Counted from the stretch's first letter, positions 93 through 31,886 are shown. The stretch is 64,000 bases of DNA from an uncultured delta proteobacterium (GCA_963766715.1 CAVYBH010000008.1:608001-672000); one strand, 5' to 3'. Notes: generated by a model not told the origin, from the sequence alone. Translations and numbers: made by a program.

Positions 93-1508
93 TCACTTCG
101 TGTACGTCCAGCGCTTCACGAGGCCGCAGAAGCCGCCGGTCTCGCCGTCGATGACCCAGTGGCCGGGCCAGCGCAGGTCCATCAGGTAGGCAGCGGCCGT
201 GGTGGCGAGCACCGGGACGTCCTGGCTCACCGGGCCGGGCAGGATGTTCTGCGGGGAGCCCGACGCGACGAGCGCGCGGGTGGCCGGGTCGTATCCGTAG
301 AGCGTCGCCTGCGGGTAGACCCCGATGAGCGGGGCGATCCCGACGTTCAGGGTCAGGTCGGCCGTGGTGGTGAGGTGGACCGGAGTCCCCACCGTCAGCG
401 CCGCGCCGACCGGTGGCGTGGACGCGACCGCGACGTCGGAGGGACACGGAAGCACCAGCGTGCGCTGGACGACGCGTCCCCGCGTCGTTGACGGTCGCCA
501 CCAGGACGATCCGCCCCCCGCTCCCGACCACCGGCTGGGTTCCGGCGGGATCGACGCGCCAGTAGCTTCCGTTCAGGGCCGGGTCGCGGAGCATGGGGAC
601 GCCGTTCAAGGTCACCGTGCCTCCGGCGGGGATGGCGCCCTTGTCGAGGGTGACGACGAGGAAGCCCTGCACCGAGGGCTCCCCCTTGGCGGGATCGACG
701 ACGTAGAGCCCCTGGGCCGCGCCCAGCTGGAAGCGGTTGCTGCCGGAGCCGCCTGCCGGCGGCGGGTTGGGATCGAAGGGGCCGGCGCGGGCGTTCCGGG
801 CGGCGTCGGGTTCGTCGTTCCGGCCGCGTTGACCGTGACGGTCACCGTGTCGGGTGACGAGCTCGCGTTCGCATCGGTCACCACCAGCGAGAAGACCAGC
901 GTGACGGGGCGCGACCCGCTGGCCACGGCCGGCGCCGTGAAGGTGGGGCCGGCCGACGGCGAGGAGGAGAGCGCCACCGCGGGGCCGGCGGTCTGCGTCC
1001 AGGCGTACGTGATGGCCTGGCCGTCGGGATCGTGGCTGCCGCTCCCGTCGAGCGTGACGGCCGCGCCCGACGCCACCGCCTGATCCGGCCCCGCGCTCGC
1101 CACCGGCGGAGGATTGGCCTGGGCGGCTGGACTCACCGTGACCGCAACCGTCGCGGGCGCCGAGGCGCCACTCGCGCTCGTCACCATGAGCGAGAAGGAG
1201 AGCGCGACGGCCGGCTGTCCGGCCGGGACCACGGGCGCCGTGAAGGTGGGCCGGACGGCGGACGCGCTGCTCAGGCTCGCGGCCGGACCCGAGGCCTGGG
1301 TCCACTGATAGGAAAGAGAGCCGCCGGCGGGATCGTGGCTGCCGCTCCCGTCGAGCGTCACCACCGCACCGGATGCGACCGCCTGGTCCGGCCCGGCGCT
1401 CGCCACCGGAAGCTGGGGACCCTGCTGCGCGGGGGAGGACGTTCCCCCACATGCGCCTGCGAGGACGGAGAGGACGGAGGTGAGAAGGGCGGCACGAGCG
1501 GTGGTCAT
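93..1508 (-). CDS. PKD-domain lipoprotein (two PKD-like repeats plus an unknown C-terminal domain), frameshifted
   Basis: Lipobox LAGAC; two PVASAGPDQAVASG.VTLDGSGSHDP repeats; reading continues across frameshifts (about 790-470) into ORF 93..455; ATG overlaps the inferred upstream stop (ATGA). Confidence 0.75.
828..1410 (-). repeat. Intragenic tandem duplication, two units of about 290 bp encoding PKD-like domains
   Basis: Near-identical DNA such as cgggatcgtggctgccgctcccgtcgagcgt at about 1025 and about 1328. Confidence 0.85.
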
Positions 1509-2562
1509 CGCGAGCTCCCCTGCGAGGAGGCGGGCAGTGCCCGCGCGTCCACCCTGGAAGACACATGTCGCTCCGCGCGAGCGTCAGGAATCACGCGCCC
1601 GCCTTGCTTCTGATCGTGGCCTTCGCTCACCGCCTTGAGGCGGGCGAGGCCGGCCTCCAGGCTCGACGCCGTCGATGCCCGGATCGCCGTTCAGGATCCA
1701 GGTGACGCGGGTGCCCTTCCCCTCCAGGGCGACCCGGAACTCGAGGTCGGTGCTGATGGCGCGAGGCGCGTCCAGCTGCAACTCGACCTCGACGCGGTTC
1801 GCGGCCGTGGCCGTCACCGTGGCGCGCCCCGCCCCTGCTTCCCCGGCGTCCCGCCAGAAGTAGGTGGAGCCCACGCCCGACTTCGGACCGCCGTAGGTCC
1901 GCTTCGCCCGGCTTCCGGTCCCCATCCAGGGAGACCAGGCCGCCCACCGGCGGAGATCGACGATCTGGCCGAGCACCACCTCGGGCGGGGCCTCGACCAG
2001 GATGGATCGCTCGATCCGGGCCACGGGAACGAGCGCCTGGGCCTCGGCAACCTTCTTCAGTCCATGGAGGCCCGCGTCGACCTCGCGCTCGGCCTTCTTC
2101 CGTCCGCCGAACCGCCAGAGCAGCCGGTCGAGGAGGTCGTTCTCTCCCGAGACGATCCAGGTGACCTTCGTGCCGTCGCCCGCCGGGGCGAAGGCGAATT
2201 CCAGGTCGCTGGAGGAAGGCCTGGGGGTCTCGAGCTCCCGCTCGATCTCGACGCGATCGGCGGTGGAGAGCACCACCGTCATGTGGCCCTTCCCGAGCGG
2301 TGGCTCGGCGGACCAGAAGTAGCTCGCGCCCGCGCCCTTCTCGGGTCCACCGTACCGGCGCTCCACCTTCTCCATGCCCACTTCCCGGGGCGACCACGCC
2401 ATCCAGCGCTGTGGACTGGCCACCTGGTCCACGACCGCGCCCTGGAGGCGCGTTCACGACGGCCGAGCGCTCCACCCGGTAGGTCGAGGGGCCGACGGTG
2501 GAGAGCCCCATCCCGACGACGGCGGCGGCGACGACGAACGCGGCGACGGCGATCTTCCACAT
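1505..2562 (-). CDS. Membrane-anchored protein with two SRPBCC/START-like domains, frameshifted
   Basis: N-terminal TM MWKIAVAAFVVAAAVVG; two repeats of ERS..V.APP..W.AWSP..YGGP..G.G..YFW; C-terminal LEAGLARLKAVSE after a frameshift. Stop position inferred. Confidence 0.75.
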
Positions 2563-2596
2563 GGCGCGGCCTCCTCCGGCACGTCGACGGGACATG

Positions 2597-2642
2597 AAAC
2601 GGCGGCGGCCAGGGGGCGGACCTGCCGCCCCCCGACCGCCGC
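2597..2642 (-). terminator. Putative intrinsic terminator
   Basis: GC stem GCGGCGG..GGGGGCGG/CCGCCCCC..CCGCCGC just after the stop at 2651, with a short T run on the minus strand. Confidence 0.45.
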
Positions 2643-2650
2643 GACACTGC

Positions 2651-5201
2651 CTACTGGCGGATCCGGTCCAGGCCGTGCGGCGGGCTGATGCCGCCGAGGT
2701 TGGACTTCACGACGAGCGGGGTCGCCGGAGGAACCGCGGGCTCGGGAGCCCCGACCAGGACCAGGATGTAGACCCCGCCGCCGTTGTTCGTGAACGTCGC
2801 CCCGAGCTGCGACGGGTCGAACGTGGTGCCGGTGGCCGTGACGTAGGGCTGCAGGGTCAGGACCACGTTCGGGCTGACCACCGACGAGCTGGCGTTCACC
2901 GTCAGGCGCTGCTTGCCGGTCCGGTACTCGGTGGCGGTGATGAGGACCGAGTCAGGCAGCGGATTCACGGTGACCGTGGTCGAGACCGGGGTCGCCGCCA
3001 GGCCCGCCGCGTTGTTCGTGTTGACGGTCACGGTGACGGTGGTGGACGTCGATCTGCCCGACCGGCAGGGTGGGCGCCGTGTAGGTCACGGTGACCGTGC
3101 AGGGAGACGTCGTGCAGGAGACCGGCGTCACCGACCAGGTTGATGAGGGCCGGGGTGCCGGTCTGCGACACGGTGAAGGTGAGCGGCAGCGCGGCGGCAC
3201 GTTCGGGTCGGTCGCCGCTGACGGTGTAGTGCCCGGTGGCGCCCGAGAAGACCGAGGCGTCGATGACTGGGCGGTCATGGTCGGCGTGCCGGGCGCGCTG
3301 ACGTTCACCACGGCGGTGGCCTGCGAGTGCCGCAGGCGTTCGACGCGGTCACGGTCAGGTTCACCGGTGGCCGGGCCGGTGGGGGCGGTGAAGGTCGGGT
3401 TCGCGACGGTGAGCGCCGAGAGCGTCCCCTGGCCGGCTGCGGGTGCCGTCCACCGGAAGGTGATCGGCGGCGGTGCCGGTGGCGGTGGCGGCGAGGGCCA
3501 CCGATCCGCCGCGAGGCGACGGTGTACGGCCCGCCGGGACTGGCGACGGGCGGCGTGCAGGCCGGCGTCGGGACCACGCTGCTCGGCCACGGGTTCAGCT
3601 GGCCGACGACGCGTGCCGGTGGAGGACGTGTAGCCGCCCTGTGCTCAGGAACGCGATGGTGTTGAAGTTGTTCTCGACGATGGGCGAGCCGGGGATGTTC
3701 TCGGGGAAGATGTACTCGCCGATCGGCGCGTGGTACTGGCCGTAGAAGATCCCGTTGGCCGTAGGTCGCCGCCGATCGCGTTGGCGCGGGACCTGGCACT
3801 GCAGCCCCTCGATGACGGCGCGCATCTCGCGGGTCGGCGGCAGGAAGGTGCCGCCGGAGGCGGCGTGCAGGACTTCTGGTCGGCCACGGTCGCCGTGCAG
3901 GGCGGACGGAAGCGCCAGCGCCCCTTCACCGCGCCGGTGGGCGGGCCCGGATCGACGCCGATGGTGCCCCAGTCGCGGTCGGTGGTGGCGCCGGTCAGCG
4001 GATCGAGGTCGATGCCGTAGAGGTGGACGTTGCGGGTCGGGTCGGTGGTCATGCCCTCGAACCGGGTGCGGATGGCGGCCTCTCCGGCGCCGAGGACGGT
4101 GAGCCCGCCGGTGCCGATGAGGCTCACCTCGACCGAGACGTAGGCCGGGTTGGTGCCGGGCCAGGTGTAGATGGCGACGTTGCTGATGATGGTGTGGGCC
4201 GAGACGTAGGTCGCGCTCGTCCCGGTGAGCGGGCCACGGACCGGTCGTCGGCGTGGCCGGCGTCCTGTCACCAGCGTGCCGGCGAAGGTCACGTAGTCGC
4301 CGACCTCCATGGGCGCCTGCTTGGTGGCGTCGGGAGGACGCCGGGCAGGCGACCGGATCGTTCATCTGGATGATGGCGGGAAGCCGCGGCGGCCGGTGGC
4401 CGGTTCGACTGCGGGCAGAGCGGGTCCGGCGTGCGACGCGCTCGGGGCGACCCGCGGGAAGCACATCGGGAAGCCGGTGGCCGAGCGTGATGGTCGGGAT
4501 TGGCGTCGTCGACGGCGAAGCGCGGAGTCGGGGACGTGGTGGCGCGGCCGAAGCGGCCCAGCGGGTCGTTGATCCGCACCCGGGTGCCGGTGCAGTTGGC
4601 GCCGCCTGCCGCCGTGTTGCCGGCGGTCGGCGTCAGCCGGGATCGGGGATATCCGCCGACCCGCATCTCGCCGAGGGCGTAGTCCATGAAGTTGATGAAG
4701 CCGGCGCCGGCGTTCAGGTCCTGCTGGGGATGTGGATGAGGCCGGCGATGTAGACGTCGGCTCCTCCCGTCCCGCCGAGCACCCGGTTGCCGGTGACGTG
4801 CGCCTCGTAGGTGGTGAGGGGCGCCGGGATGTCGGCCAGCGCCATGCCGGTCGCGACGCCGGTGTACGGCGCCGGCGCCAGCGCGAAGAGCTCCTGCCAG
4901 GTGAAGGCGCGTGGCCGGCAGGATCACGATGGTCTCCGACGGCACGATGATGGTGTGGCCGTTCACCTTGATGATGCCGCCCTGGTGGGCCCCGACGCCC
5001 GGACCCACGTTGAGCCCGGAGGTTCCGGCCCCCAGGGTCGCCTCCTGGATGAACCCGGTGATGTCGAACTGGGTGGACGCCGGCATGGGCAGCTGGGCCT
5101 GCGCCGGGACCGCGACCGCATCGCGGCGAGGACCGCCGCGAGCGATCGCCAGCCCGTTCCTCTTCGATCCTTCGCATCCAACTCGAGACCTGGCTTTTCA
5201 T
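2651..5201 (-). CDS. Large secreted beta-rich protein of unknown function (about 850 aa, PKD/Ig-like C-terminal part), heavily frameshifted
   Basis: RBS AAGGGAG before ATG 5201; signal-like N-terminus ending AQAQ; coherent segments in ORFs 4289..5086, 3645..4310, 3595..4464, 3305..3799, 2952..3590 and 2651..3031. Confidence 0.7.
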
Positions 5202-5772
5202 TTTGATGCTCCCTTGTTCTGCGCCGGCGTACCGGACCACCTCGGCACCCGGCTCGATGTCGGGTGCGGCGTGAAGCAACGGTGATCGTCGTCCATCGGC
5301 CACGTCAGTCCCTCCCGCACGGGACGCGTCGTGCCGCCGAGGAGCCTGGCTCCGGAGGCACTCCCGGATCTCGATGCAGGTGCATGGGAATGGATGCATC
5401 GGCGCGCGAGCGCACGCTGCGGGCTGACTTGCCGGGGCACGGCTTCCTCTCCCGGGCGCGACTCGACCCGGCCGGATGGACGATCCCGCCTCGGGCAGGA
5501 ACGGTGGGGACGGGGCCGCCGGCAGGCCATCCCCCGCTCGGGTCATCCGTCCCTCGGCGGTGGCGGCGGTCCGGCACCCTTCACCGGATGGCGAACGTTT
5601 GCTTGCGCTTCCGGGCCGGAGCCTGTCTCCGCGTCGCGGGACTGGGGTCTTCCGCGATCGTCGTCAGCGTTCAGGCGTTCCAGGACGTCCCCGGGTCGCG
5701 AGGACTCGGGGACGTGTTCCGGGGAGGTCGGGCCACCAACGACTCGACCAAGAGTCAAAAAGGGGAATCCAG

Positions 5773-7874
5773 ATGAAGACCAGGAGATCGAAGAACCAGC
5801 CGAGGAACCCTGGCGGCATGAGCCGCCGGGACATGCTCAAGATCACCGCGGCGACGGGCGTCGCGGCGGCCGCCGCCTCCGTCGCCGGCCCGGCGCACGC
5901 CAAGGGCGGTGGGGGGTGGCGGGGGCGGTGGGACGACCGGGCACGTGCACCGGGCCTCCAGGCCATCGAGGCGTTCCCGACGAGCCCGCTCATCCTGAAC
6001 CCGTTCACCGATCCGCTGCCGGTGCCGCAGGCGGCCCGGCCGGTGGACACGAGCAAGTGGACGAACAAGCCCAGCGGGGCGTCCGGGTGCCAGGACTCGG
6101 ACGGCTACACCCACCAGATGTGGCCGGGCCAGGCGGGCACCGTCTGCGCCAACATGCCGCAGCCGATCATCTACCAGAACAAGCTGCAGGTGGCGGCCCA
6201 CAGCTTCACGTCGTCACCGGTGCGGACGCTCGTCCCCTACACCAACACGAAGGGGAAGGTGGTGCCGGCCGGCACCGTGGTGTCGAGGCTGCCGGCCAGC
6301 ACCATCTACGGCTTCAACGGCAAGTTCCCCGGCCCCATGATCAACGCCGAGTACGGGAAGCCCTGCCTCGTCCGCTTCGAGAACCACCTCGACGAGAACC
6401 CGCTGAACCTCGACCGCGGCGACTTCGGCGCGCCCGACTGGACGTTCCTCACCCACCTGCACAACGCCCACACCGCGGCCGGAGAGCGACGGCAACCCGC
6501 ACTACAAGATGGGCGGCCTACGACACGCCCGGCGGCTGGGTCGACAACCTCTACCTGAACTACCCGGCGGGCGAACGACGAGGCGCGAGAAGCAGTCCTT
6601 CTTCTGGTTCCACGACCACAAGATGGACCACACCGGCGCCAACGTCTACAAGGGCATGGTCGGCCTGTACCCGATCTACGACCCGGTGTCCTCGACTCCG
6701 GGTGACGAGACCAAGGGGCTGCGCCTGCCCGGCGTCCGCACCAACAACCCCGACGGCACGTTCGACGTGAAGTACGACATCCCGCTGGTCTTCTACGACT
6801 GCCGCCTCGACGACGGCGCCACCCCGCACCAGGACATCCACAACGGCTGCGGCGAGGTCCACCCCGAGTGGTGGGGCAAGACCTTCTTCCAGCCACTTCC
6901 CGAACCACGGCTTCGTGGGCGACATCTTCACCGTGAACGGGACGGCCTACCCGGTCCTCACCGTCAACCGGCGCAAGTACCGCTTCCGCTTCCTCGACGG
7001 CCGCCGTCTCGCGCGCAGTTCGAGGTCGACGCTCATGAAGTCGTCCGGCGGCCCGAAGTCGGCCGTGTCGCTCGGCTACGGCGGCGACGAGCTCGAGGGG
7101 CAGTGGCGCATCCAGGACGGCGTCACCTGCATGAGCTTCATGCAGATCGCCTCGGGCGGCGGCCTCCTGCCGAGCGCCATTCCCCGGACCAGCATCGAGA
7201 ACTGGCCGGCCATGCGCCACGAGATCGTCGTCGACTTCACGAAGTACCTGGACGGCACGCCGACCACGAAGGGCGACGTCATCTACCTGACGAACATCTG
7301 AAGATGCCGGACGGGCGTGAGGCCGCCAACAACTCCCGGATCGGGCTCGACCCCCGGTACAAGATCCCGCTCCTCAAGATCGTCATCGGGAACGACGCAC
7401 CGGACAACAGCGTCATGCCGACGGCGAACACGATCCTGCGTCCGCAGCCGAAGCTCCCGGACCTGTCGACGCTCCCGACCCGCACCTTCGAGCTGCAGCG
7501 CGGCGGGTTCGGCGGCGAGATCGAGTGGCTCATCAACGGCCAGCCGTTCGACCCGGTCCGTCGCCGCTCGCGACGGTGAAGCAGGGCGCAGCCGGAGATT
7601 CTGGGTCATCAAGAACGGCGGCGGCGGCTGGACCCACCCGATGCACCTCCACATGGAGGAGCACCACGTCCTCACGCGGAACGGGCAGCCGGCCACGTCG
7701 GTCCCGGGTCACCAGGACGACACCGGGAAGGACGACGTCATCGCCCTCGACCCGTCGGAGGAGGTGGTGGTGGTCCGGAACTTCCGGACCTTCACCGGGA
7801 ACTACGTGGCCCACTGCCACAACCTGGCGCACGAGGATCACGCCATGATGTTCGGCTGGACCCTCGCGAAGTAG
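5773..7874 (+). CDS. Tat-exported three-domain multicopper oxidase (copy 1), frameshifted
   Basis: Tat motif SRRDMLK; copper motifs THLHNAH, WFHDH, HPMHLH, HCHNLAHEDHAMM; RBS AGGGGA. Confidence 0.93.
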
Positions 7875-7911
7875 GCGGCGACGGAACCGTCGAGGGGGGC
7901 AAGGAGTGGGA

Positions 7912-8466
7912 CTAGCGGGCCGCGCCCCAGGTCGGGGACGGCGCGTGTCCCTCGACGGCTTCGGAACCATGTCGGACCAGGAACTCACGGGCCCTCTCGA
8001 CGAATCTCGCGAGCTTGCGCGAGACGGTCCGCGGCGAGATGCCGAGCAGGCTCGCGACCTCCTCGTGTTCCATCCCATCCACGAAGACGCCCACGGCGAC
8101 CGCCTGGGTCACGGCGTCGAAGCGGGACAGGACGGCCTGGGCAAGTTGCCTTTCCGGGTACGCATCGGGGCGGTCCCCGTGCGCGATGGCCACCACGTCG
8201 AGGCCCTCGGCGAGGGCGTCCTCTCCGCGCCTGCGCGCGTTGCGGCGGAGGTTCAGGCAGTGGTTCATCGCCACCCGGTAGATCCAGGGGAGCAGCGTGG
8301 CCCGGTCCTTGAGCCGGTCCGCGTCGCGGAGCAGCTTCACGAACACCTCCTGGGTGGCGTCGTCGGCTCCGGCCTTGTCGCCGAGGAGGCGGAGGCATCG
8401 GCGGTACACCAAGGGCCCGAACTCCCTGTAGATGCGCGCGACCTGGCTTTCGTCGACTGGCTTCAT
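7912..8466 (-). CDS. ECF RNA polymerase sigma-70 factor
   Basis: Region 2 ADDATQEVFVKL..WIYRVAMNHCLN; region 4 GMEHEEVASLLGISPRTVSRKLAR. Confidence 0.9.
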   Translation of the reverse strand: MKPVDESQVARIYREFGPLVYRRCLRLLGDKAGADDATQEVFVKLLRDADRLKDRATLLPWIYRVAMNHCLNLRRNARRRGEDALAEGLDVVAIAHGDRPDAYPERQLAQAVLSRFDAVTQAVAVGVFVDGMEHEEVASLLGISPRTVSRKLARFVERAREFLVRHGSEAVEGHAPSPTWGAAR

Positions 8467-8731
8467 CCGCACTCCCTGGCCGGCCAACCTGGGCCGGAGA
8501 TCTTTCTCGAGCACCGGGTCGGGTAAGTGGAGCGACTCGGTCAACATTTACGTGCGATCCCATTCTTGCACCGGCCGTCCAGGGGATTGCCCGTACCGCT
8601 ACCGTGGTACGCGGACGACGAGTAAACCATGGAAATCAGGTAAGTAAACGTATCTCGGGTCTCGAAGCAGGGCCTTCGTCGGACCTGGCCTGGATCGCCA
8701 AACCGACCGCCCTCAGGAAGCAAAACGAAAG

Positions 8732-8745
8732 TTGACCTTTATCAA
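8732..8745. promoter_or_regulatory. FNR/CRP-family-like binding site
   Basis: TTGAC-CTTT-ATCAA, 9/10 match to TTGAT-N4-ATCAA, in the AT-richer divergent intergenic region. Confidence 0.6.
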
Positions 8746-8877: not shown

Positions 8878-9545
8878 ATGAGCACCCGGCAATCCAGGTC
8901 AGTCCTCGTCGTCGGCGCCGGCAACCTCGGCGGCCCGGCGGCCCTCACGCTCGCCTCCGCGGGCGTGGGACGGATCACCCTCCTGGACGCCAGTGTCGTC
9001 GCGCCCCAGGACCTCTCTTCCGATCCGATCCTCGTCGAGTCGGATCTGGGTCAGTCGCGGAGCGAGGCCGCTGCACGGAGGCTGCGGCGGCTCTTCCCGG
9101 CCATCGAGGTGGAGTCCTGCGCCGATCAGGTCGCACGGAGGCGCTGCTCGACGGGCTCGTCCGATCGGCGGACGTCGTGGTGGATGCCTCCAGCGACTTC
9201 GCGGGCATGTTCGCGGTGAACGACGCCGCGATCGCGGCGGGACGGCCGCTCGTCCATGGCGGCCTGAACGGGCTCACGGTGCAACTGCTCACCATCGTTC
9301 CGCGGGTGACGGGATGCCTGCGATGCCTGTTCGAAGGACCGCCGCCGCCCGGGGCCGAGGTGGGGGTGCTGGGACCGCTGGCGGGATGGGCGGGCTCCCT
9401 CCTGGGAGCGGAGGCCGTGCGCCTGCTCGATGGCCGCCCCGGCGCCTACGCCGGTCGCCTCCTGCTCCACGAGGCGCGCCCGGGCCGCGCGCGCGAGGTG
9501 CCCGTGAAGCTTCGGCCGGACTGCACCGCCTGTGGAGCCACATGA
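8878..9545 (+). CDS. ThiF/MoeB/HesA family protein A, frameshift near 9135
   Basis: VLVVGAGNLGG..GVGRITLLD; DVVVDASSD; zinc motifs CLRC and CTAC; GVLGPLAG. Confidence 0.85.
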
Positions 9546-10237
9546 GCGGAACGGACCTCGCCGGCGACCGCTTCGCCCGTCAACGGCTCCTCGGCGGGAT
9601 CGGCGCCGACGGCCTGGAGCACGTCCGGAGCGCGCGGATCCAGGTGGTGGGAGCCGGCGCCATGGCGGGGGCCGCGCTCCTCCACCTCGCCCAGGTGGGC
9701 GTCCGGACGATCTACGTGGACGACGGCGCGGACGTCGACGGTCTCCCCGACGGCGACGGGGAATCCTGGATGTACTCCCCCGACCAGGTGGGACGGCCCC
9801 GGATCCTCGCAGCCCTCGAGGCGCTTCGGGCGGCGAGCAGCCTCGTGGAGGTCCGGCCGATCGCGTCGGACGTCGAGCCCACCGCGACGCTCGTCTGTGC
9901 GCAGCGCGAACCGGTGGCGCGCAAGGCCGCCGAGCGCGCGCGGCGGGCCGGCCTCCCGCACGTCGTCGCGCTCGCCAACGGCGACGGCGGCGTGGTGATC
10001 ACCATCCCGTCCGGCGCACCCTGCTTCGGCTGCGCCTTCCAGCCCGGGGCGCGGCTGCCGCTCCAGCCCGGCGCGGCGACCTCCCTGGGAGCGCTGTCGG
10101 CGGTCGAGCTCCTCCTCGTGGTGGCGCGCGCCCTCCCCGGGGCGGGGGGCGGGCGCCGCATCGACGTGTCGGCGGGATGGCCGAGCACGCGGCCGACGGC
10201 GCGCGTGCCGGGCTGCGACTGCGTCAACGTGTACTGA
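9542..10237 (+). CDS. ThiF/MoeB-like protein B (degenerate)
   Basis: DRFARQRLLGGIGADG..IQVVGAG; CFGC and CDC; ATGA overlap with gene A. Confidence 0.8.
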   Translation: MSGTDLAGDRFARQRLLGGIGADGLEHVRSARIQVVGAGAMAGAALLHLAQVGVRTIYVDDGADVDGLPDGDGESWMYSPDQVGRPRILAALEALRAASSLVEVRPIASDVEPTATLVCAQREPVARKAAERARRAGLPHVVALANGDGGVVITIPSGAPCFGCAFQPGARLPLQPGAATSLGALSAVELLLVVARALPGAGGGRRIDVSAGWPSTRPTARVPGCDCVNVY

Positions 10238-10261
10238 AGCGCGTCCGACCCGGCCGCCGGA

Positions 10262-11003
10262 TCACTTCCCGTAGGTGAACGGCACGGCGGCCACGGCATA
10301 GCTGCCGTCGTCGTTGGTCACGGCGATGGCCACCTGGCCGGCCCGGGCCGGCGGCGCCTCCACCGTGATCGACCGCGGCGTCCGGCCGCCACGATGCGCG
10401 CCGGGTCGAGTCCGAACATCACCTGGGCCGCCCGGAGGTTCTTTCCGCGAATGGTGACGCGCGCGCCGCCCGCGGCTGGGCCCGCGCGCGGCTGGACGTC
10501 CTCGATGACCGGTGGCGGCCGCGTCTCCGCGGCCGGATCGGGCCGCCAGGGATCCGGGGGCGGGACCACCATCTGCTGGAGCGGCTCCGGCAGTCCGGCG
10601 TTGGCGTTGAACTCGATGTCGCGAACCAGCCGCTTCATGCCCTCGGCGAGGGGCTGGGCGGCCTCACGCTCCTCCTCGCTCTCCACCTCGGCGGCCCCGG
10701 CGTCCGTCGCGAGGCTTCCGGCTTGCCCGGCGAGACCGGCCTGACCCGTCTGTAGCGGCTGACCCGTCTGGCCCACGGCCGAGGTGGACGGGAGCGCGGG
10801 GAAGGACGGCACGTCGGCAGCGGCGCGGGGGCGCGCCTCCAGCCGCGATGCACGCCCAGCCGCCGAGGCCGGGACCTGGGCCGCGCGCGCGATCGTCGGG
10901 CCAGAGCCGATCGGCCAGGTGCGTCGCTTGCCAGAAGCCCAGCCCAACCGCCGCCGAGCATCAGGGCGAAGCGGAGCGGGCCGGACTGGTACCAACGACG
11001 CAT
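10262..11003 (-). CDS. IPT/TIG-domain protein with hydrophobic N-terminus, frameshifted
   Basis: PVIEDVQPRAGPAAGGARVTIRGKNL..VMFG..IAVTNDDGSYAVAAVPFTYGK*. Confidence 0.7.
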
Positions 11004-11280: not shown

Positions 11281-13352
11281 ATGACGACCGAGACGGCGGA
11301 CGAACACCCGGAAACGACGATGGAACTCACCCGACGCGACATGCTGAAGATCACTGCCGCGACAGGGGTGGCCGTTGCCGTTGCCGGGGTCGCCCAGCCG
11401 GCGGCCGCCGCCACGACCGCAGGGACGTGCAGCGGCCTGGACGCCCTCGAGGCCTTCCCCACGAGCCCGCTCATCCTCAATCCGTTCACCGACCCGCTGC
11501 CCGTGCCCAGGGCGCTCGCGCCGGTCGATCCGGCCGCGGTCTCGACCTGGACCAACAAGCCCAGCGGCGCGCCGGGCTGCCAGGACTGCGACGGCGGCTC
11601 CCACCAGCTGTGGCCGGGCCAGGCCGGAACGGTCTGCGCGAAGATGCCGCAGCCGAAGGTCTACCAGATCAAGCTGCAGGTCGCCGGCCACAGCTTCTCG
11701 TCGTCGCCGGTGCGGACGCTCGTGCCCTACACCAACCCGAACGGCGTCCGCGTGCCGGCCGGCACCGTGGTGCCGAAGCTGCCCGAGAGCACCATCTACG
11801 GGTTCAACGGCCAGTTCCCCGGGCCCCATGATCAACGCCGAGTACGGCAAGCCCAACTGCGTCCGGTTCGAGAACCACCTCGACGAGAACCCGCTGAACC
11901 TCGACCGCGGCGACTTCGGCGATCCCAACCTGGGCTTCCTCACCCACCTGCACAACGCGCACACCGCGTCGGAGAGCGACGGCAACCCGCACCACAAGGA
12001 GGAGGCGTACGGCCCGGGCGGCTGGGTCGACAACCTCTACCTGAACTATCCGGCGGGGGGCGACGAGGCGGAGAAGCAGTCCTTCTTCTGGTACCACGAC
12101 CACCGCGAGGGGCACACCGGCGCCAACGTCTACAAGGGAATGGCCGGCCTCTACCCGATCTACGACCCGGTCCTCGACGCGGGCGACGAGACGAAGGGGC
12201 TGCGCCTTCCCGGCGTCCGCACCGACCACGGCGACGGCTCGTTCGACGTCGACTACGACATTCCCATCGTCCTCGGCGACGTCGCCCTCGACGACGGCGC
12301 CACCCCGCACCAGGACTTCCACAACGGCTGCGGCGAGGTCCACCCCGAGCAGTGGGGCAAGACCTTCTTCCGCCACTTCCCCAACCACGGGTTCGTGGGC
12401 GACGTCTTCTGGGTGAACGGAAAGGCCTACCCCGTCCTCGAGGTGAAGCGGCGCAAGTACCGCTTCCGCTTCCTCACGGCGGCCATCGCCCGCCAGTTCG
12501 AGCTCCAGTTCATGAAGTCGGCCGGCGGCCCGAAGTCGGCGGTGTCGCTCGGCTACTCCGGCACCGAGCTCCAGGGGCAGTGGCGGATCCAGGACGGCGT
12601 CAAGTGCCTGAACTTCGTCCAGATCGCCTCGGGGGGCGGGCTCCTGCCGAACCCCATCGTCCGCGACACCATCGAGAACTGGCCGGCCATGCGCCACGAG
12701 GTCATCGTCGACTTCACGAAGTACCTGGACGGCAACAAGACGAAGAAGGGCGACGTCATCTACCTGACCAACGTCTGCAAGATGCCGGACGGGCGCCAGG
12801 CCACCAAGAACTCCCGCATCGGCCTCGACTCCAAGTACAAGATCCCGCTCCTCAAGATCGTGATCGGCGACGACGCGCCGGACAACAGCGTCATGCCCAC
12901 GGCGAAGACGCGTGCTCCGCAAGCAGCCGGTCATCCCGGCCGACCTGTCCAAGCTCCCGACCCGGACCTTCGAGCTGCAGCGCGGCGGGTTCGGCGGCGA
13001 GACGCAGTGGCTCATCAACGGCCACCCGTTCGACGCGACCGTGCCGCTCGCCGTGGTGAAGCAGGGGCAGCCCGAGGTCTGGATCATCAAGAACGGCGGC
13101 GGTGGCTGGAGCCACCCGATGCACCTCCACATGGAGGAGCACCACGTGGTCACCCGGAACGGGAAGACCGCGACGTCGGTGAAGGGGCACGAGGACGACA
13201 CCGGCAAGGACGACGTCCTCGCGCTCGATCCGAGCGAGACCATCGTGGTGTACCGGAACTTCCGGACCTTCGCGGGACACTACGTCGCCCACTGCCACAA
13301 CCTCGCTCACGAGGACCACGCCATGATGTTCGGCTGGACCATCGAGAAGTAG
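11281..13352 (+). CDS. Tat-exported multicopper oxidase (copy 2), two frameshifts (about 11822 and 12911); alternative start 11320
   Basis: TRRDMLK; THLHNAH, WYHDH, HPMHLH, HCHNLAHEDHAMM. Confidence 0.93.
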
Positions 13353-17800: not shown

Positions 17801-18160
17801 CCTCGACATCGCCTACGCGCAGGCGCGCAAGGAGAACCGCCTCCGCAGCCTGGCCGAGCTCGACCACGCGATCCTGGTCGGCGCCGCCAAGCGCCTCCGC
17901 CCCAAGTTCATGACCTTCGCCACCGCCTTCCTCGGCCTGGTCCCGATCATGTGGGCCACCGGCGCCGGCTCGGACGTGATGAAGCGGATCGCCGCTCCCA
18001 TGGTGGGCGGCCTCCTGACCTCCTTCCTGATGGAGCTGGTGGTCTACCCGGTGATCTACCGGGCCTGGCGGCGGTACGGAGACCTGAAGGGACGGCTGGA
18101 GAAGCGGCTCCGACCCAGGAGGTCGAGGTCGGGTCCGGCGCGAACCCCGAGACGGCGTGA
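14847..18160 (+). CDS. cusA: CusA-type Cu(I)/Ag(I) RND efflux transporter (frameshift near the C-terminus)
   Basis: GTG overlapping the cusB stop; LDAIPDLSDTQVII; NIMSLGGIAIAIG; Met-site motifs EFMPPLDEG, PLSMLET, RIEMLSTG; RLRPKFMT. Confidence 0.92.
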
Positions 18161-20466: not shown

Positions 20467-20476
20467 GGTCCTTCGC

Positions 20477-24103: not shown

Positions 24104-24127
24104 GTACGGGGGTTATGCTGGGCGCTC

Positions 24128-24739: not shown

Positions 24740-24908
24740 GCGAGAAGAAGTTTTTCTGTTCCATCCCGGAACGACGCGGCTGTCCCCGGGTCGCACGACT
24801 ACGCCCCGTGTCCGGTCCAGTCGGCGTGCGGTGTCAGTCCACCAAACGCTCATGCATCGCGAGCCCGGGACGCGTCACCACCCGGGACGGAGCGACGGAG
24901 GGAAGTCC

Positions 24909-25832
24909 ATGTTGCTCGTGGCACCCAGCGTGGAAATGGAGCCGGTCGCCGACCTTGCCAGAGGAAAAGGACCTTCCGGGCCTGTCCTCGGGCGGGGCCT
25001 TCGCCGTGTACGTGTCGCAGATCCGGCGGATCCCCCTGCTGACGCCCGTCCGGGAGCGCGAGCTCGCCCGGGCCTACCGCCAGCACAAGGACCTCCGCGC
25101 CTTCGACCTCCTCGTGACCTCCAACCTGCGCTTCGTCGTCCAGGTCGCTCGCACCTACCGCTCGTACGGCAGGCGCATCTCGGACCTGATCCAGGAGGGC
25201 ACCCTGGGGCTCATCCGGGCGGTCGAGCGGTACGACCCCGATCGCGACATCCGCCTCGTCTCCTACGCGGTCTGGTGGATCCGGGCCCACATCCAGGCCT
25301 ACATCCTCCGGACCTGGTCGATCGTGAAGGTCGGGACCACCCAGGTCCAGCGCCGGCTCTTCTACGCGCTCGCCCGCACCAAGCGGGAGCTCGAGCGTCG
25401 CGGCGACTCGCTCCCCCCTCCCTCGAGCCCGCGGAGACCGCCACCGTGGCCGGGCGGCTCGGCGTCACGACGAAGCAGGTCGAGGAGATGACGCACCGGC
25501 TCCACCAGCGGGATCTGTCGCTCGACGCGTCGGTCGGCGAGGACGGCCCGACGCACCTCGAGTCCATGGCGTACGAGGGACCGTCGCAGGACGAGCTGTT
25601 CGACGATGCCCAGCAGCAGGCGCACGCTGCGGTGCGGGTCGGCGCGGCCCTGGCGCAGCTCGACCCGCGCGAGCGCACCGTCGTCCAGTCCCGGCTGATG
25701 AGCGATTCGCCGATGACCTTCCAGGAGGTCGGGGACGTCATCGGCTGCTCGCCGGAGCGGGCGCGACAGCTCGAGACGCGGGCCAAGCTGAAGCTGCGGC
25801 GGCTCCTCGAGGCCGCCGAGGCGGAGCGGTGA
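24909..25832 (+). CDS. Sigma-32 (RpoH-like) RNA polymerase sigma factor, frameshifted
   Basis: LVTSNLRFVV; DLIQEG.LGL; SYAVWWIRA; RpoH-box-like ILRTWSIVKVGTTQVQRRLF; ERARQLE. Confidence 0.88.
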   Translation: MLLVAPSVEMEPVADLARGKGPSGPVLGRGLRRVRVADPADPPADARPGARARPGLPPAQGPPRLRPPRDLQPALRRPGRSHLPLVRQAHLGPDPGGHPGAHPGGRAVRPRSRHPPRLLRGLVDPGPHPGLHPPDLVDREGRDHPGPAPALLRARPHQAGARASRRLAPPSLEPAETATVAGRLGVTTKQVEEMTHRLHQRDLSLDASVGEDGPTHLESMAYEGPSQDELFDDAQQQAHAAVRVGAALAQLDPRERTVVQSRLMSDSPMTFQEVGDVIGCSPERARQLETRAKLKLRRLLEAAEAER

Positions 25833-25859
25833 GCCCGCGACACCTGGCGAGAGGTTGAC

Positions 25860-26452
25860 GTGAAGAGACTGGTCCTCCTGGCGCTGGCTGGAATCGCCGC
25901 GGTCGGCGTCGGCGCCTCGCTCGTGATCCTGACGGTCACGGAGTCCCGGACCTCCTGGACGGCGACCGCCCCTGCGGAGGCGGCGGGGGCCGTTCGAGCC
26001 GAGGCGTCGCAGGCGCCCGGCGAGCCCGGGGGGTGATCCAGCCGGAGCAGCCGGTCCAGCCAGGCCTCCGTCGCCTCCAGCTTCCCCCACGCATCGCCGC
26101 CCGGGACGTGACGGCGCCCATCGCGGAGTGCCTCCGATCGCACCCCACCAGCCACGGTGGCGGCGCGGTCCTGACGCTGGAGCTCGAGGCGCTGGCGGGC
26201 GGCGGACTTCGCATCGTCGAGGCGCCGGTGGCGGCCTGGGGGAATGCCAGCCGGGCGCTGGTCGCCTGCGCCCAGCAGATCCTTCCCGGAAGGACGATCG
26301 CCATCGGAGAGTATCCGCCGGGGGAGCGCTTCCGTGCCAGGTACGATCTCGAGTCGGCCGCGGCTGCCGCGCCCGCCCGGGAGTCCCCGGTGGCGAGCAC
26401 CGTGCCCGCCCGCCAGCCGGCGCGGCGAGCGTCCGGCGGCGGACGTCGCTGA
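25860..26452 (+). CDS. Hypothetical membrane-anchored protein (frameshift in a G run near 26030)
   Basis: GAGG RBS plus GTG; N-terminal TM; continues in ORF 26033..26452. Confidence 0.55.
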
Positions 26453-26703
26453 CCGTGTCTCCGGCGGCCTCCGCGGTCCGCTGGCCGGGACGCCCCGATA
26501 ATCATCCAGGAGGGTGTCCCCGTCGCGACCGGACGCTGGCGTCACGTTCCGTGAACGGGTCGGATCCGGCAAGTCTTTCCTTACGTCAGTCCGATCGCGT
26601 GGGTGTCCGCCCCGGCCGACCCCGTTGACCGGGATCCCGGTGCTTCTCGCGGGGATTGCCAGGTGGACCGAGGTGGCGACCTCCCTCGATCAAGGTACTT
26701 CGG

Positions 26704-26717
26704 TTGACGTCGATCAA
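26704..26717. promoter_or_regulatory. FNR/CRP-family-like binding site
   Basis: TTGAC-GTCG-ATCAA, about 95 bp upstream of ATG 26810. Confidence 0.6.
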
Positions 26718-26809
26718 GTCACAGGTTCCCTCAGCGTTCCGAAACGTTCGGACCGAGTCTCCAGTTGGCTCATGCGGCCGAGGCCGCGAACGGAAGCGAG
26801 GGAGTCCCA

Positions 26810-29068
26810 ATGAAGCAGCTCACGAGATGGACCGCGACGCTGGCGATGGTCGCACTGGCGAGCGCGGCGCAGGCCGACCTGAACCGGGTCGGACCGCCTG
26901 CGTTGCCCTCCCCTCCCGGCAACGGGTTCCCGGCCTGGTACCAGGACCTGAACGGCCTGACCCTCGACATCTGCCTGCCCAACGCGAGCGGCGACACGGG
27001 TCAGGCGCAGCAGGCTGCCTGCCTCCTGACCGGGGTCGGCATCGAGCCGCCGTACGTCTTCCCGACCAACTACCCCGACGAGATCTTCTACTTCCGGGCC
27101 GTCTCGGACGTGCTCGACACGAGCGCCAACGGCGCCGCCGGGACGAACAAGGCGATCCTGGTCCTGGCCCTCGAGGCCGCGTTCGCGAGCGGCGGCGCGC
27201 AGGCGGGCCAGCAGATCGTCTTCACGCGAATCCGCGTCACCGCGGGCGTGCCGCACGCGGGCACCTACACGGTCACCCACCCCTACGGCATCGAGACCTT
27301 CGTCGTCGACGTGGCCACGGGCGCGCGGGACATCTTCTTCTCCGAGGACATCGGCATCAACCCGGGCGCCTTCACGGACGCGCTCTCGAGCCGGGTGGGA
27401 CCGTTCCTCCAGGCGTCGGCCATCGAGGGCGGCGCGCCGAAGGCGCCCGTCACCATCAACGGCGCCTCCTTCCTCTCCGACGGCGTGGCGCTCGAGATCC
27501 TCACCGGCAGCCCCTTCGGGACCAACTACTTCGAGATGTGCGGCCCCTTCGACGGCGCGGCCAATCCCGACACCTGCCGGAAGACGCCCCTCTTCAGCCT
27601 GACCGGCCGCCTGCACAGCGGGCTCATCGGCAGCCCGCTGCGGGTGGATCGCGCCTCCTACAGCCGCTTCCGGGTCGGACGCGCAGGTCGACGTCTCCGC
27701 CAACGCCAAGGCCGGCATCGGCCAGGCCGCCCCGAAGCTCACCACCGCGTCCTCCAGCGTCTCGCCGGTGCTCCTCAACGGCCCGACGGCGCTCGGCGAG
27801 TGGTACGCGCAGGGCATCCCGGTCCCGGCCAGCGCGATCCCGAGCCAGCTCACCGTGACGAACAGCGCCGACTCGCCGCCCACCTCGGTGGTGGCGCGCG
27901 TGACCGACCTCGTCACCGTCAAGTCGGCGAACTACGCCGGCGCCACCCTCACCGTCGTGGCGACCACCACCGACAAGGGTGACTTCACCAACACCCCCGA
28001 CCCGCTGCTGCCGCCCAGCCTCGCCTCGACGGATTCCCCCTGGCCAGCGTCTCCCGTGCCAACTCCTCGGATCCGGGCCGAGACCACCTTCACCGTCGTC
28101 CTCCCTGGCCGTCCGCCCCGAGCGTTCGGGTGTCCTCCGCGGCCGGCGGCCAGGGACAGATGGACGTCGTCATGGCTCGCACGGCGGCCTTCGCCGGCGG
28201 CGTTCCGCTCGCCGTCGACGACAATGCCGACCGCCACCGCGGGTGGGGGCGAGATCCCGGTGTTCGTGATGGACAACGACGTGCTGGGCAGCGTGCTGCT
28301 GAACGCGGCTCCTCTCGCGATCATCGGCGTCCCGACGGCCGGCACGGCCACCGTCCGGAAGGACGCGGTCACCGGGGCGTTCTACGTGGGCTACCTGCCC
28401 TCGCACCTCGCGGGACCGAGACGTTCCAGTACACGGTGCGGAACGCGGAGGGGCAGTCCAACGTCGCGACCGTCACGGTCGACGTGGGCCCGAACCCGAA
28501 CCCGACCCCGGTGGCGGTGAACGACCCGACGGTGGGCGCCCTCACGCTGACCACCGGCGCGACGATCACCGTCAACGTGCTCGGCAACGACAGCGGGAAC
28601 GGCGGCACGCTCGACCCGGCCTCCGTCCTGGTGAGCAGCGTCACCGGCGGAACGGCGGTCGTGAACCCGGCGAACGGGGCCATCAGCTACACGGCCGGCG
28701 CCGCCACCGGGAACTTCAGCATCACGTACACGGTGGCCAACACCAACGGCCTGAGGTCGAACGCCGCCACCGTCGCGCTGACCGTGACGGCCCCCGAGAC
28801 CATCACGCTGAAGGGCGCGCAGTGCCAGCGCCAGGGCACGCAGTGGGTGGTGCAGGGCTCGAGCACCACGCTGACCGGGACCATGACCATCTTCAACGTG
28901 GGTCTCGTTCCGGCCGCTCCCACGGTCTCCCAGATCATCGCGAACGTCCCGATCTCGGCCGGCAAGTGGCAGTACAACGTGAAGGGCGGCCCGGCCTGCG
29001 TCAGCCCCATCAGCCTGCAGTCGACGGGCGGCGGCAAGCTGCAGAACGTGAACGTGGCCATCAAGTAG
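26810..29068 (+). CDS. Large secreted protein with an uncharacterised N-terminal domain and Ig-like (Big_9/cadherin-like) repeats, frameshifted
   Basis: Signal peptide ending AAQA; GFPAWYQD..LDICLP, FPTNYPDEIFYF, LVLALEAAF, FTRIRV, YTVTHPYG; PVAVND..VNVLGND..ISYT..FSITYTV..SNAATV. Confidence 0.8.
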
Positions 29069-29086
29069 CCGGCACGCGCAGCATCC

Positions 29087-29136
29087 CCGGCCCCCGGATC
29101 CCGACGCAGCTCGGGGACCGGGGGCCGGTCCTTTTT
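29087..29136 (+). terminator. Intrinsic terminator
   Basis: CCGGCCCCCGG.TCCC / GGGACCGGGGGCCGG stem followed by TTTTT. Confidence 0.75.
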
Positions 29137-29218
29137 CTCGCCGGTTCCGGGCCGCCATCTGTCCACTGGAAACGGCGTCGGGTGTCGTACCAGCAGTCGA
29201 ACACGCCAGGAGACCCTC

Positions 29219-31886
29219 GTGACCCTCGCCCTCCCCTCGCCTCCGATCGAACGCCGCGATCCTCCTGCTCGTCCTCGCCGCCTGCGGCGGATCCGCCGGC
29301 GACCCGACGCGTCCCGTCGTGACGCCGCCCGGCGGCCCGGGGCCCCCGGCGTCCCTCTCGGCGACGGCCGGCAACCAGTCGGCGTCGCTGTCCTGGATCG
29401 GCCCGCCTCGGACGGCGGGAGCGCCATCACGGGCTACTCGGTCGTGGCCTGCCGGCCGCGCCGTCGGCCGTGGTTGCCGTCAGTCGGGACGACCGCGTCG
29501 GTCACGGGCCTCGCGAACGGGACGCACCTACACCTTCACCGTCCGGCCACCAACGCCGTCGGGAGCGGTCCGGCGTCGAGCACGCCGTCGAACGCCTACC
29601 CCGCCGCGTCGCCGCCGTCCTCGCCAGCGTGACCCCCGGCCTCGGGCTCTTCTGCGGCGGCGCCGTCGGTGACCCTCGCCGGCAGGGGCTTCGTCCCGGG
29701 CGCCGCGGGGAGCGTCGTGACCTTCGGCGGCGTCGCCGCCACCGTCACCAGCCGCACGGCCACGTCACTCGTCGTCTCGACGCCGGCGCACGGCGCCGGC
29801 TCGCAGCCGGTCACCGTGACCAACCCGGACGGCCAGGGCAGCACATGCCGGGCGCATACGCTTCGTCGATCCCCCGCCCGCCCACGCCGCCGGTGACCGC
29901 ATCCGTCACACCCGTGACGGACCCGGACTGGGCAGAGCGCCGTGCTTGCCGGGGCGTTCTCGTTCGTGACCCCTCCCGCCACTCCGGCGCCGCTCCTCTC
30001 CAGCCTGTCCCCGGCATCGGGTGCCGGCGTGGGAGGGACCGCGGTGACGCTCGCGGGAACCGGCTTCGTCTCGCCGGTCTCGGTCCGGTTCGGCGGGACC
30101 GCCGCCACGGTCTCGGCGCAGACGGCCACCTCCATCGTCGTGGTCGCCCCGCCGCACGCCCTCGGCCTCGTGGACGTGGTGGTGACGAATCCGGACGCCC
30201 AGTCCTCCACCCGGGCTCGCCGCCTTCGACTACGTCTTCCCGGCGGCCCCGCCCTCCGACGCTCTCGAGCGCGGCTCCCGCCCAGGGGGCCGCCGCCGGG
30301 CGGCACGACGGTGACGCTCGGGGGCTCCGGCTTCGTGGCGCCCGGTGACGGTCAGCCTTCGGTGGCGGCGGCGGCCACGGTCGTGAGCGTGAGCCCGAGC
30401 GCCGTGACGGTGGTGACGCCCCCGCACGCCGCGGGGGCGGTGGCGGTCGTGATGACGAACGCCGACACCCAGGCCTCGACCCTGCCCGTCCGGATTCACC
30501 TACACCGCGGCGCCGGTCATCCCGCCTCCGTCGCTCACGGGCGCGACGCCCGCCTCCGGGCCCACCGCGGGAGGCACCACGGTCGCGCTGTCGGGCGCCG
30601 ACTTCGACGCGGGCGCCTCGGTCACCTTCGGCGGCGTGGCCGCCGCGGTCGTGTCCCGGACCGCCAGCACCCTCACCGTGACGGCGCCCGCCCACGGCGC
30701 CGGGGTCGGTGGAGCGTCGTGGTCACGAACGGCAGCGGGCTGTCCGCGACCCTGGCGGGCGGGTACTCGTTACGTCGCCCCGCCCGCCATCACGAGCGTG
30801 AGCCCGGCCACCGGTCCCGTCGTCGGGCGGGACATCGGTGACCATCGCGGGCACCGGGTTCGTCTCCGGCGTCGAGCGGCAGCCAGGTGACGGTCGGCGG
30901 GGCCGCGGCCACGGTGACCGGCCGCACCAACCTGACGCTCGTCCGTGACGACGCGCCGGCGCATCCGGCGGGGCTCGCACCGGTCGCCGTGACCAACCCG
31001 GACGGCCAGAGCGCCACGCTGGCCGGGGCCTTCACCTTCGTCGACCCGCCGCCGGCGCCTTCGGCCCCGACCCTCACCGGCGATCAGCCCGTCCTCCGGG
31101 CCGGCCGCCGGCGGGACCACGGTGGTCCTCACCGGGACGAACTTCGTCACCGGCGGCGTCGTGACCTTCGGGGGCGTGGCGGCCACGATCGTCGGACCCG
31201 GTGCTCTCCACCCAGATCACCGTGACGACGCCGGCTCACTCAGCCGGTGGGCGCCGTCGACGTGACCTTCCTGAACCCGTTCACCGGCCAGGTGGCCTCG
31301 GTCGCGCTCGGCTACACCTTCCTGGCCGCGCCCCCGGTCATCGACGCCCTGAGCATCCGCGGCGCTCCGCCCGCCGGCGGGACCACGCTCAACATCCTCG
31401 GCTCCGGATTCCAGCCCGGCGTCACGGCCACCTTCGGCGGCGCGGCCGCGACCGGGCTCGTGATCTCCGACGCCACGCCGCCCGCGGAAGTACCTCACCC
31501 TGACCATCCCGCCCCAGCCCGCCGGAGCCGGGGCCTTCGTCGACCTGGTCATCCGGAACCCGGACGGCGGCTCGGCCACCTACCCCGGCTTCCACTACGG
31601 GCCGCCCCCGACCATCACGTCCGTGTCGGTCGCGCCCCCGGACGCGCTCACCAACATGCACAAGGGGGACGTCATCACCATCAGCCGGCGCGGACTTCAG
31701 CGCGAGCACCGGCGTCCAGGTCCAGATCGGCAACCTACGCGCTGATCGTGTCGGCGTCCGCCACCGAGCTCGTGGTGGAGGCACCCAAGGTGAACCCGGG
31801 CACCTACCGGCTGGTGGTGACGAACACACGACGGCCAGTTCGGCGTCGCGGCGACGGCGTTCGACATCGTCTACCAGGGACCCTGA
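29219..31886 (+). CDS. Lipoprotein with an FN3 domain and about 8 IPT/TIG repeats, heavily frameshifted
   Basis: GGAG RBS; lipobox LAAC; FN3 ATAGNQSASLSW..DGGSAITGY..GLANG; repeated P.SG...GGT.VT..G.GF..V.FGG..V.VTNPDGQ. Confidence 0.78.

Follow-up and report, generated by a model that had tools for sequence, protein, structure and literature searches.

What do two multicopper oxidases (MCOs) and a set of secreted proteins with immunoglobulin (Ig)-like domains do together on one stretch of bacterial chromosome? The stretch, hereafter the window, comprises 64,000 nucleotides of an uncultured delta proteobacterium (G000:C8:608001-672000; genome G000 measures 4.2 Mb and is 85% complete), and the genes concerned occupy its first 32 kb. 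The original prediction held that they build an extracellular oxidase-plus-scaffold apparatus for Mn/Fe mineral chemistry or a surface matrix, rather than serving simple copper detoxification. Two of the secreted proteins, here termed famA and famB, are by sequence comparison Ig-stalked secreted families with a common C-terminal domain. We regard it as an evenly balanced proposition, on genomic evidence, that famA and famB are surface accessory factors of a manganese-oxidase-type system, the main enzyme of which is likely an MnxG-like oxidase whose gene lies 18 kb outside the window.

Single-base indels break many genes of the window. Since intact orthologues of the broken genes exist in relatives, frame switches also affect 4 of 11 control genes (a lower bound), and the extra base at the 7300 break is present in contigs from two other public runs, the frameshifts are probably assembly or sequencing errors, and their reading as pseudogenes was rejected on the same grounds. 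Intact orthologues therefore stood in for the broken window genes in all analyses.

Two Ig-stalked families that travel with oxidases

The C-terminal 250 residues of famB are homologous to the famA C-terminus (98.5%, E 1.5e-15). An Arthrobacter MCO carries the same domain as a fusion (24.8 bits), and P0510 carries two famB cores fused to a peroxidase; no fusion of a famB core to an MCO occurs among 527 stored proteins.

The N-terminal 452 residues of famB are predicted (model pLDDT 94.7) to form a core of ~260 aa followed by two Ig-like domains, and the core contains conserved Cys, His, and acidic residues. Among the PDB matches listed, none covers the core (residues 1-262), which was not searched alone; the best Z, 7.6, belongs to the Ig parts. 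At a threshold of E 1e-10, famB-like representatives number 1287, and famB adjoins oxidases in four phyla. It forms MCO-SCO-famB or famB-MCO-SCO operons in Skermanella, G537, and Methylomicrobium, stands beside MnxG-like operons in G017, G026, and Terrabacter, and lies between MCOs in Arthrobacter. In Indioceanicola, 17 kb separate famB from an MnxG-like operon, with genes of the type II secretion system (T2SS) in between; T2SS genes are found beside famA or famB in several taxa. In each of the three plasmid records containing famB, an MCO lies close by, and the famB core, detected in 7 of 251 Actinomycetales genomes, has an adjacent MCO in six of these seven. Three famB loci (G034, one in G017, and one in G043) have no MCO within 10 kb. 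In Burkholderiales, the famB core occurs in 1/251 genomes and MnxG-like genes in 3/251, without overlap. No Pseudomonas name was found in the 20 clusters looked up. The complex predicted for the G004 MCO with famB residues 1-362 scored 0.00, which weighs neither for nor against binding.

At the actinomycete loci L252, L255, L256, and L257, proteins of 1200-1800 aa carry two or three tandem famB cores with no oxidase nearby, and some of them stand as tandem gene pairs. The cluster at G625:C110 (L212-L215, L237) comprises six genes with a famB core together with a peroxidase, an MCO containing TSP3, and a protein that joins a famA core to a famB-type tail; its peroxidase, famA, and MCO lie ~7 kb before the famB genes.

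The famA gene has no Pfam match over 2651-5150; no more than the C-terminal third of its product is Ig/PKD-like. The intact 857-aa orthologue is modelled (pLDDT 83.5) as a core of ~500 aa with three Ig/PKD-like domains, and 883 of 8000 scored candidates match it, almost all without a name. A comparison of the core with the DUF5666 OB-fold (PF18914) gave a weak match in 1 of 44 members (E 0.0066), and in the fold search, the core was masked by its Ig domains. The original prediction of five beta-sandwich proteins is borne out for the PKD protein at 93-1508, the TIG proteins at 10262-11003 and 29219-31886, and the Big_9-containing famB, but for famA only in the C-terminal third. The FN3 module implied there is not reported by Pfam for the window proteins.

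A GTDB survey of long famA, in which the best 80 of 262 confirmed stretches yielded 73 loci and MnxG was not among the queries, found a bilirubin oxidase (BOD)-like MCO at 20 of the 73 loci (14/33 among those of at least 18 kb), a di-haem peroxidase at nine, and famB at one. On a Paraburkholderia plasmid, the order is T2SS genes, famA, peroxidase, famA, MCO, and SCO-cytochrome c. A short, core-only famA closes an MnxG-like operon in Roseomonas. Short famA was met at 79 metagenome loci, 46 of which span at least 10 kb; an MnxG-like gene is present at 34 of these 46, a propeller gene at 28, a peroxidase at eight, and a BOD-like MCO at two. The predicted co-occurrence of MCOs with both families thus holds across phyla. 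As a lead only, one Atlas famA-like cluster has Ascomycota as its commonest recorded phylum, so that fungal homologues are possible.

An MnxG-type operon and a shared promoter box

An mnxG-like gene (frameshifted in G000), a propeller gene, and two SCO genes lie at G000:C8:689990-699500, ~18 kb past the window end. The gene set of the Pseudomonas-type operon (mnxG, propeller, two SCO, ABC-type binding protein, and SurA) was recognized in G017 by Pfam, in G011 by gene order, and in G000, outside the window, by synteny (propeller and both SCO detected). In G017, the operon reads mnxG-propeller-SCO-SCO-cytc/PBP-SurA-x-famB; the same gene set is named for P. putida in the Fig. 2 legend of PMC8218464, a source available in part. 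Full-length matches to NF041487 reach 2169 bits in G011 and 2262 in G017, against a cut-off of 3100. The claim that these genes work like MnxG stands, while membership of the MnxG family does not; in this system, the copy beyond the window probably serves as the main oxidase.

Among 40 relatives, famB is present in 11 and a strong MnxG-like gene in 11, with both in 10 and neither in 28. A sample of 201 Myxococcota genomes contains 15 with strong MnxG and five with the famB core, with an overlap of three. The MnxG model matched 0/301 in Gammaproteobacteria. Since 10 of the 11 famB-positive relatives carry the MnxG-like gene but only 3 of the 15 MnxG-positive Myxococcota carry famB, the relation appears one-way: where famB is present, an exported oxidase is almost always encoded close by or elsewhere in the genome, whereas the oxidase does not imply famB.

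The two FNR-like boxes of the original prediction were recovered in the window, where 0.01 would be expected. Perfect TTGA-N6-TCAA sites number only 18 in G000, and three of them precede ThiF/ECF, famB, and mnxG (the last at C8:689632). Other boxed genes are presumably those for a cytochrome, citrate synthase, pyruvate oxidoreductase, and IspH, as read from their translations. The famB box is perfect at -65/-66 in 8/8 genus relatives, against a background of 0.0017 per 400 nt. The box upstream of mnxG is perfect in G000, G011, G005, and G008 and has one mismatch in G003, G012, and G017. This motif at a conserved famB promoter position fits an FNR/CRP-type regulon of putative sites. No sigma-54 promoter motif was found in window 1-33000.

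Published traces of famB

The best hit of McoA in the Mn-oxidising strain Rubrivivax A210 is RA210_u420004, a 'Glycoprotein gp2' with 49% similarity (E 3e-11) that lacks a cupredoxin domain and lies two loci from gspG genes, according to the accessible text of PMC8218464. The 2286-bp length of this gene agrees with the 761-aa famB homologue P0351, which has the same name and strain; the two are presumably one protein, and McoA would share a non-catalytic region with famB. The 'Glycoprotein gp2' label is carried by P0351, by two Atlas clusters that match the famB core at TM 0.81, and also by an McoA orthologue. In P. resinovorans, a hyper-oxidising mutant shows two gp2 proteins up 4.9 and 4.4 along with two MCOs; both gp2 proteins are down in two non-oxidising mutants, as described in the available part of PMC13631088. 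Homologues of MnxG and MofA have been noted in Deltaproteobacteria (bioRxiv 2022.11.10.515945, in part), and gp2 goes unmentioned in the accessible portion of PMC9765421. No description of famA or famB as oxidase partners was found in the literature covered; the primary P. putida GB-1 papers lie outside this coverage and may mention them.

The nearby mnxG-type operon, the shared FNR-type box, and the published similarity of McoA to famB strengthen the link to Mn-oxidase-type systems beyond what the original prediction had to go on; copper handling remains plausible for MCO2.

Proposed mechanism

In the mechanism that we propose, Cu-loaded oxidases (MCO1 and MCO2 via Tat, twin-arginine translocation) would reach the surface through the T2SS. 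There, famA and famB would each present a head domain, formed by the N-terminus, on a stalk of Ig domains, and these heads would keep the enzyme, Mn(II/III), or nuclei of oxide on the cell surface. The C-terminal domain common to both, which some oxidases also carry as a fusion, may act as a secretion or anchoring tag. At oxic-anoxic interfaces, mnxG, famB, and the local sigma factors would be switched in concert by a regulator of the FNR/CRP family; MCO1, MCO2, and famA1 may be driven by the boxed sigma factors.

A bolder version, possible though doubtful, is that Gram-negative and actinobacterial Mn oxidases have their missing accessory subunits in famA and famB, stalked proteins of the surface with head folds outside any known class that nucleate or position Mn oxide, with a C-terminal export tag common to McoA-type enzymes. 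If so, a genus of Anaeromyxobacteraceae would carry a full, FNR-type-controlled Mn-oxidising apparatus. Two widespread unannotated families are named as candidate accessory proteins of Mn oxidation, with a common domain and promoter box, and a lineage best known for anaerobic metal reduction is flagged as carrying a Mn-oxidase-type gene set. These candidates bear on the need of pseudomonad Mn oxidases for accessory proteins, as for the Bacillus enzyme, which the available text of PMC13689576 poses as an open question.

The window multicopper oxidases

Both MCO1 and MCO2 possess a Tat signal (PF10518 at 23.7 bits, above the cut-off, and 21.1 bits, just below it; S/TRRDML motif) and all four Cu motifs (HLHNAH, WF/YHDH, HPMHLH, and HCHNLAHEDHAMM), and the ligand set of 10 His, the Cys, and the axial ligand is present in the window genes and in their intact orthologues. 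Two Tat MCOs are present as predicted, but they are complete only after reading through frameshifts. The closest PDB sequences are bilirubin oxidase (E 7e-41) and CotA (E 3e-34), and no NCBIfam equivalog is matched. Identification as MnxG (~1900 aa) was rejected because the 690-aa orthologue has no NF041487 match; CueO was rejected on an NF008205 score of 115 against a cut-off of 525 and the lack of a Met-rich loop (3 Met per 30 residues vs 10 in CueO); and orthology to OmpB was rejected for want of a fused FN3 domain and placement in a different clade.

In a quick IQ-TREE tree of 45 rows, in which G011 orthologues replace the broken window genes and McoA is not included, 26 of 28 small MCOs from famA/famB neighbourhoods share one clade with the window type (SH-aLRT 98). 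This clade is separate from the Priestia plasmid MCO, the MofA-like group, and CueO, which forms a long branch of unsure position. All eight relatives with close MCO orthologues also have MnxG-like and famB genes. MCO2 has 82% DNA identity to the G011 orthologue of MCO1 vs 78%, over the MCO-Cus stretch, to the orthologue of MCO2, and it bears MCO1-type motifs; gene conversion or replacement is possible. A third, larger MCO at G000:C8:144413-147201, 62-67% identical to a G017 MCO, falls in another clade than the window MCOs; we label both as putatively MofA-like on the basis of motifs and of an FN3 match found in a relative.

Layout of the region

The 32 kb is a mosaic in which a mobile island with famA, MCO1, and the peroxidase is joined to a separate conserved TIG-MCO2-CusBA unit and to a famB that has been relocated (Table 1). 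Its interpretation as one conserved operon cluster was rejected, as the complete arrangement is absent from every relative examined. The 15.5-kb island begins 10 kb upstream of the window and runs famA paralogue, di-haem peroxidase, SRPBCC, RpoH-like sigma, PKD lipoprotein, SRPBCC, famA, and MCO1. It is common to G000 and G011, a same-genus relative placed in Anaeromyxobacteraceae, where it occupies a different site, ~4 kb from the mnxG-like operon. MCO2-CusB-CusA is kept in seven genus relatives, on contigs separate from famB and contig-split in some; the divergent TIG gene accompanies it in six, and in the seventh, G007, the contig begins 0.6 kb before the MCO. The famB locus of the genus consists of multihaem cytochromes, a sigma-54 two-component pair, a small anchored protein, famB, and an M28-PabB block. 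In G000, the island and the MCO2 unit are inserted between the sigma-54 regulator and M28, and famB follows the M28-PabB block. The 18-24.7 kb block, suspected at the outset to be unrelated, is probably so in function, but it is a conserved chromosomal neighbour of famB in the genus. Because contigs from another run bridge the MCO1-ECF, ECF-ThiF, and ThiF-TIG-MCO2 junctions, this local order is real in a related strain.

Table 1. Features of the window, with position, strand, and supporting observation
Feature	Position	Strand	Observation
PKD-repeat lipoprotein, frameshifted, island member	93..1508	-	Pfam PF22352; lipobox-like LAGAC; G011 orthologue
Double-SRPBCC membrane-anchored protein, island member	1619..2562	-	PF10604; tblastn to G011 orthologue
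famA, unnamed secreted protein, heavily frameshifted	2651..5150	-	Intact 857-aa orthologue P0001
MCO1, three-domain multicopper oxidase with Tat signal, similar to bilirubin oxidase/CotA, divergent from famA	5773..7874	+	
Extracytoplasmic-function (ECF) sigma factor, divergent from FNR-type box	7912..8470	-	
FNR/CRP-type palindrome between ECF and ThiF pair	8732..8745		
ThiF/MoeB-like tandem pair	8878..10237	+	Pair also precedes orthologous MCO in G017
Single-TIG anchored protein, divergent from MCO2	10262..11003	-	Upstream of MCO2 in 6/7 genus relatives
MCO2, Tat multicopper oxidase, first gene of conserved MCO-CusB-CusA unit	11281..13352	+	
CusB-type adaptor (HMBD, YHS) and CusA-type RND (resistance-nodulation-division) pump	13366..18160	+	
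RpoH-like sigma factor	24910..25832	+	Absent from this position in relatives examined
Small membrane-anchored protein	25860..26452	+	Kept upstream of famB across genus
FNR/CRP-type palindrome upstream of famB	26704..26717		
famB ('Glycoprotein gp2'-labelled family): signal peptide, core, Ig/Big_9 stalk, C-terminal domain	26810..29068	+	
TIG-repeat lipoprotein	29219..31886	+	Shorter TIG lipoprotein also after famB in G017

The table also includes the Cu-type RND pump, the ECF and sigma-32 factors, and the ThiF pair of the original prediction, found as CusB/CusA-type, ECF, RpoH-like, and ThiF genes. ThiF2 was detected by Pfam without an NCBIfam match, and the ThiF/MoeB-like tandem sits behind the box at 8732.

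The system extends past the window on both sides, with the famA paralogue and the di-haem peroxidase upstream and the mnxG-type operon downstream. G000:C8:598236-608000, just upstream, contains the first half of the island: the second famA, a second PKD lipoprotein, the ~800-aa peroxidase (MauG/MbnH-like, below cut-offs), an SRPBCC protein, and an RpoH-like sigma factor. Further upstream, G000:C8:591543-597451 encodes multihaem cytochromes, a histidine kinase, and a sigma-54 response regulator, which in relatives of the genus are found ahead of famB; the kinase/regulator pair loosely recalls MnxS/MnxR. RpoH-like paralogues number at least five in G000 (window 24910-25832, C8:605 kb, C8:879 kb, C13:221 kb, and C12:416 kb), and two of them flank the oxidase/famA/famB system. 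On the minus strand at window 31912-34692, an M16 peptidase pair and then a PD-(D/E)XK nuclease belong to the genus backbone and are fused here by frameshifts.

Weighing the readings

Several observations weigh against famA and famB as accessory factors of a Mn-oxidase-type system. None of the MnxG-like proteins scored reaches the 3100 bits required by NF041487, the best value being 2575. The co-occurrences of famB with MnxG are not independent, since 9 of the 11 famB-positive relatives come from one family, leaving about three independent lineages rather than ten. The famB core is not obligatory, being present in 3/15 strongly MnxG-positive Myxococcota genomes, and famA was found in 1 of the 40 relatives and 2 of the 201 Myxococcota genomes; five genomes chosen for MnxG contain famA in one case and famB in none. 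The short-famA query was taken from an MnxG-adjacent gene, and the metagenome loci are partly redundant. Five of 12 newly fetched actinomycete famB loci have an adjacent MCO, and the other seven are oxidase-free, several of them tandem arrays. No box was found before mnxG in G004, G009, and G026, nor in the G002 stretch, and none precedes MCO1, MCO2, or famA1. The P. resinovorans gp2 pair (PRES513_05617/05618) is equated with famB through its label and the Atlas clusters, not its own sequences, and the literature listings hold no direct evidence of Mn oxidation by this lineage. Judged by these distributions, neither family is obligatory to MnxG-like systems.

The strongest rival, which we consider rather unlikely, holds that famA and famB are biofilm or adhesin proteins; the neighbouring laccase-like MCOs and the di-haem peroxidase would cross-link or modify these proteins or else further phenolic constituents of the matrix, any metal oxidation being secondary. 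The variable partner oxidase (MnxG-like, BOD-like, or peroxidase), the oxidase-free tandem arrays with up to three cores, the match of both the famA and famB stalks to cadherin-like/PKD adhesins, and the closeness of the window MCOs to bilirubin oxidase and CotA all suit it. The fall of the gp2 pair in the pilC and algR mutants does so as well, and its authors read the pair as biofilm proteins (PMC13631088, in the part available), a further point against the accessory-factor reading. The tight placement in mnxG-type operons and the box shared with mnxG point instead to a metal-oxidase context.

MCO2-CusBA is a separate conserved unit that likely handles copper at least in part; neither CusC nor CusF was seen in it. 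That the window MCOs in general are periplasmic cuprous oxidases serving the CusBA pump, with the Ig proteins as bystanders, is unlikely: the low Met content without a Met-rich loop, the sub-threshold CueO score, and the clade apart from CueO speak against it, as do the presence of CusA in 0/73 long-famA loci and the restriction of close MCO orthologues to relatives that also carry MnxG-like and famB genes (8/8). The co-directional MCO2-CusB-CusA unit of the seven genus relatives, unlinked to famB there and without an FNR-type box before it, does favour a copper role, which may hold for MCO2 alone, with the accessory-factor reading as the best explanation for famA and famB.

A chance joining of unrelated islands by rearrangement or mis-assembly is very improbable and largely refuted for the families, given their cross-phylum adjacency, shared domain and box, the bridging contigs, and an island that adjoins another member of the set in both genomes (mnxG in G011, the original famB locus in G000), even if the differing island sites, the separate contigs of famB and MCO2 in relatives, and the error-rich assembly leave the exact window order possibly accidental.

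The accessory-factor reading keeps the core of the original prediction, namely that Ig-stalked secreted proteins travel with oxidases; the apparatus is, however, not one locus, and its window MCOs are not of the MnxG, MofA, or OmpB type.

Comparison with known systems

Leptothrix MofA and Geobacter OmpB find their likeness in the larger MCO at C8:144 kb; the window MCOs differ in clade and lack a fused FN3 domain, the named proteins not having been directly compared. CueO with CusCBA resembles the MCO2 unit in that a Tat MCO is followed by CusB/CusA-type genes, whereas MCO2 has no Met-rich insert, scores below the CueO cut-off, and occupies a separate branch. Myrothecium bilirubin oxidase and Bacillus CotA, the best PDB matches, have the same standard T1/T2/T3 ligands with an axial Met; the window MCOs are ~150 aa longer, Tat-exported, of low identity, and set in another gene context. 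MnxE3F3G of Bacillus PL-12 is likewise a Mn-oxidising MCO in need of accessory subunits; in contrast to MnxE/F, famA and famB are large multi-domain beta proteins, and no homology to MnxE/F was seen, no comparison aimed at it having been made.

The closest likeness is to Pseudomonas, for which MnxG (1944 aa), McoA (1131 aa), both described as Sec-exported, and export by T2SS are presented in the accessible text of PMC13689576. MCO1 and MCO2 are smaller (~690 aa) and have Tat signals; McoA (ABY98562.1) is followed by an SCO gene, whereas the window MCOs have no adjacent SCO. Where Pseudomonas has MnxS/MnxR, control here looks FNR/CRP-like, and the consulted passages do not name famA or famB as members of the P. 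putida mnxG operon. The GB-1 mnxG operon is mirrored in G017 and G011 by the MnxG-like, propeller, two SCO, cytochrome c/periplasmic-binding protein, and SurA genes; the P. putida mcoA-SCO operon by the MCO-SCO-famB operons of Skermanella, G537, and Methylomicrobium; and xcm type II secretion by the T2SS genes beside famA and famB. By this analogy, the best reading is that the system works like Pseudomonas Mnx/Mco/Xcm with extra, undescribed parts.

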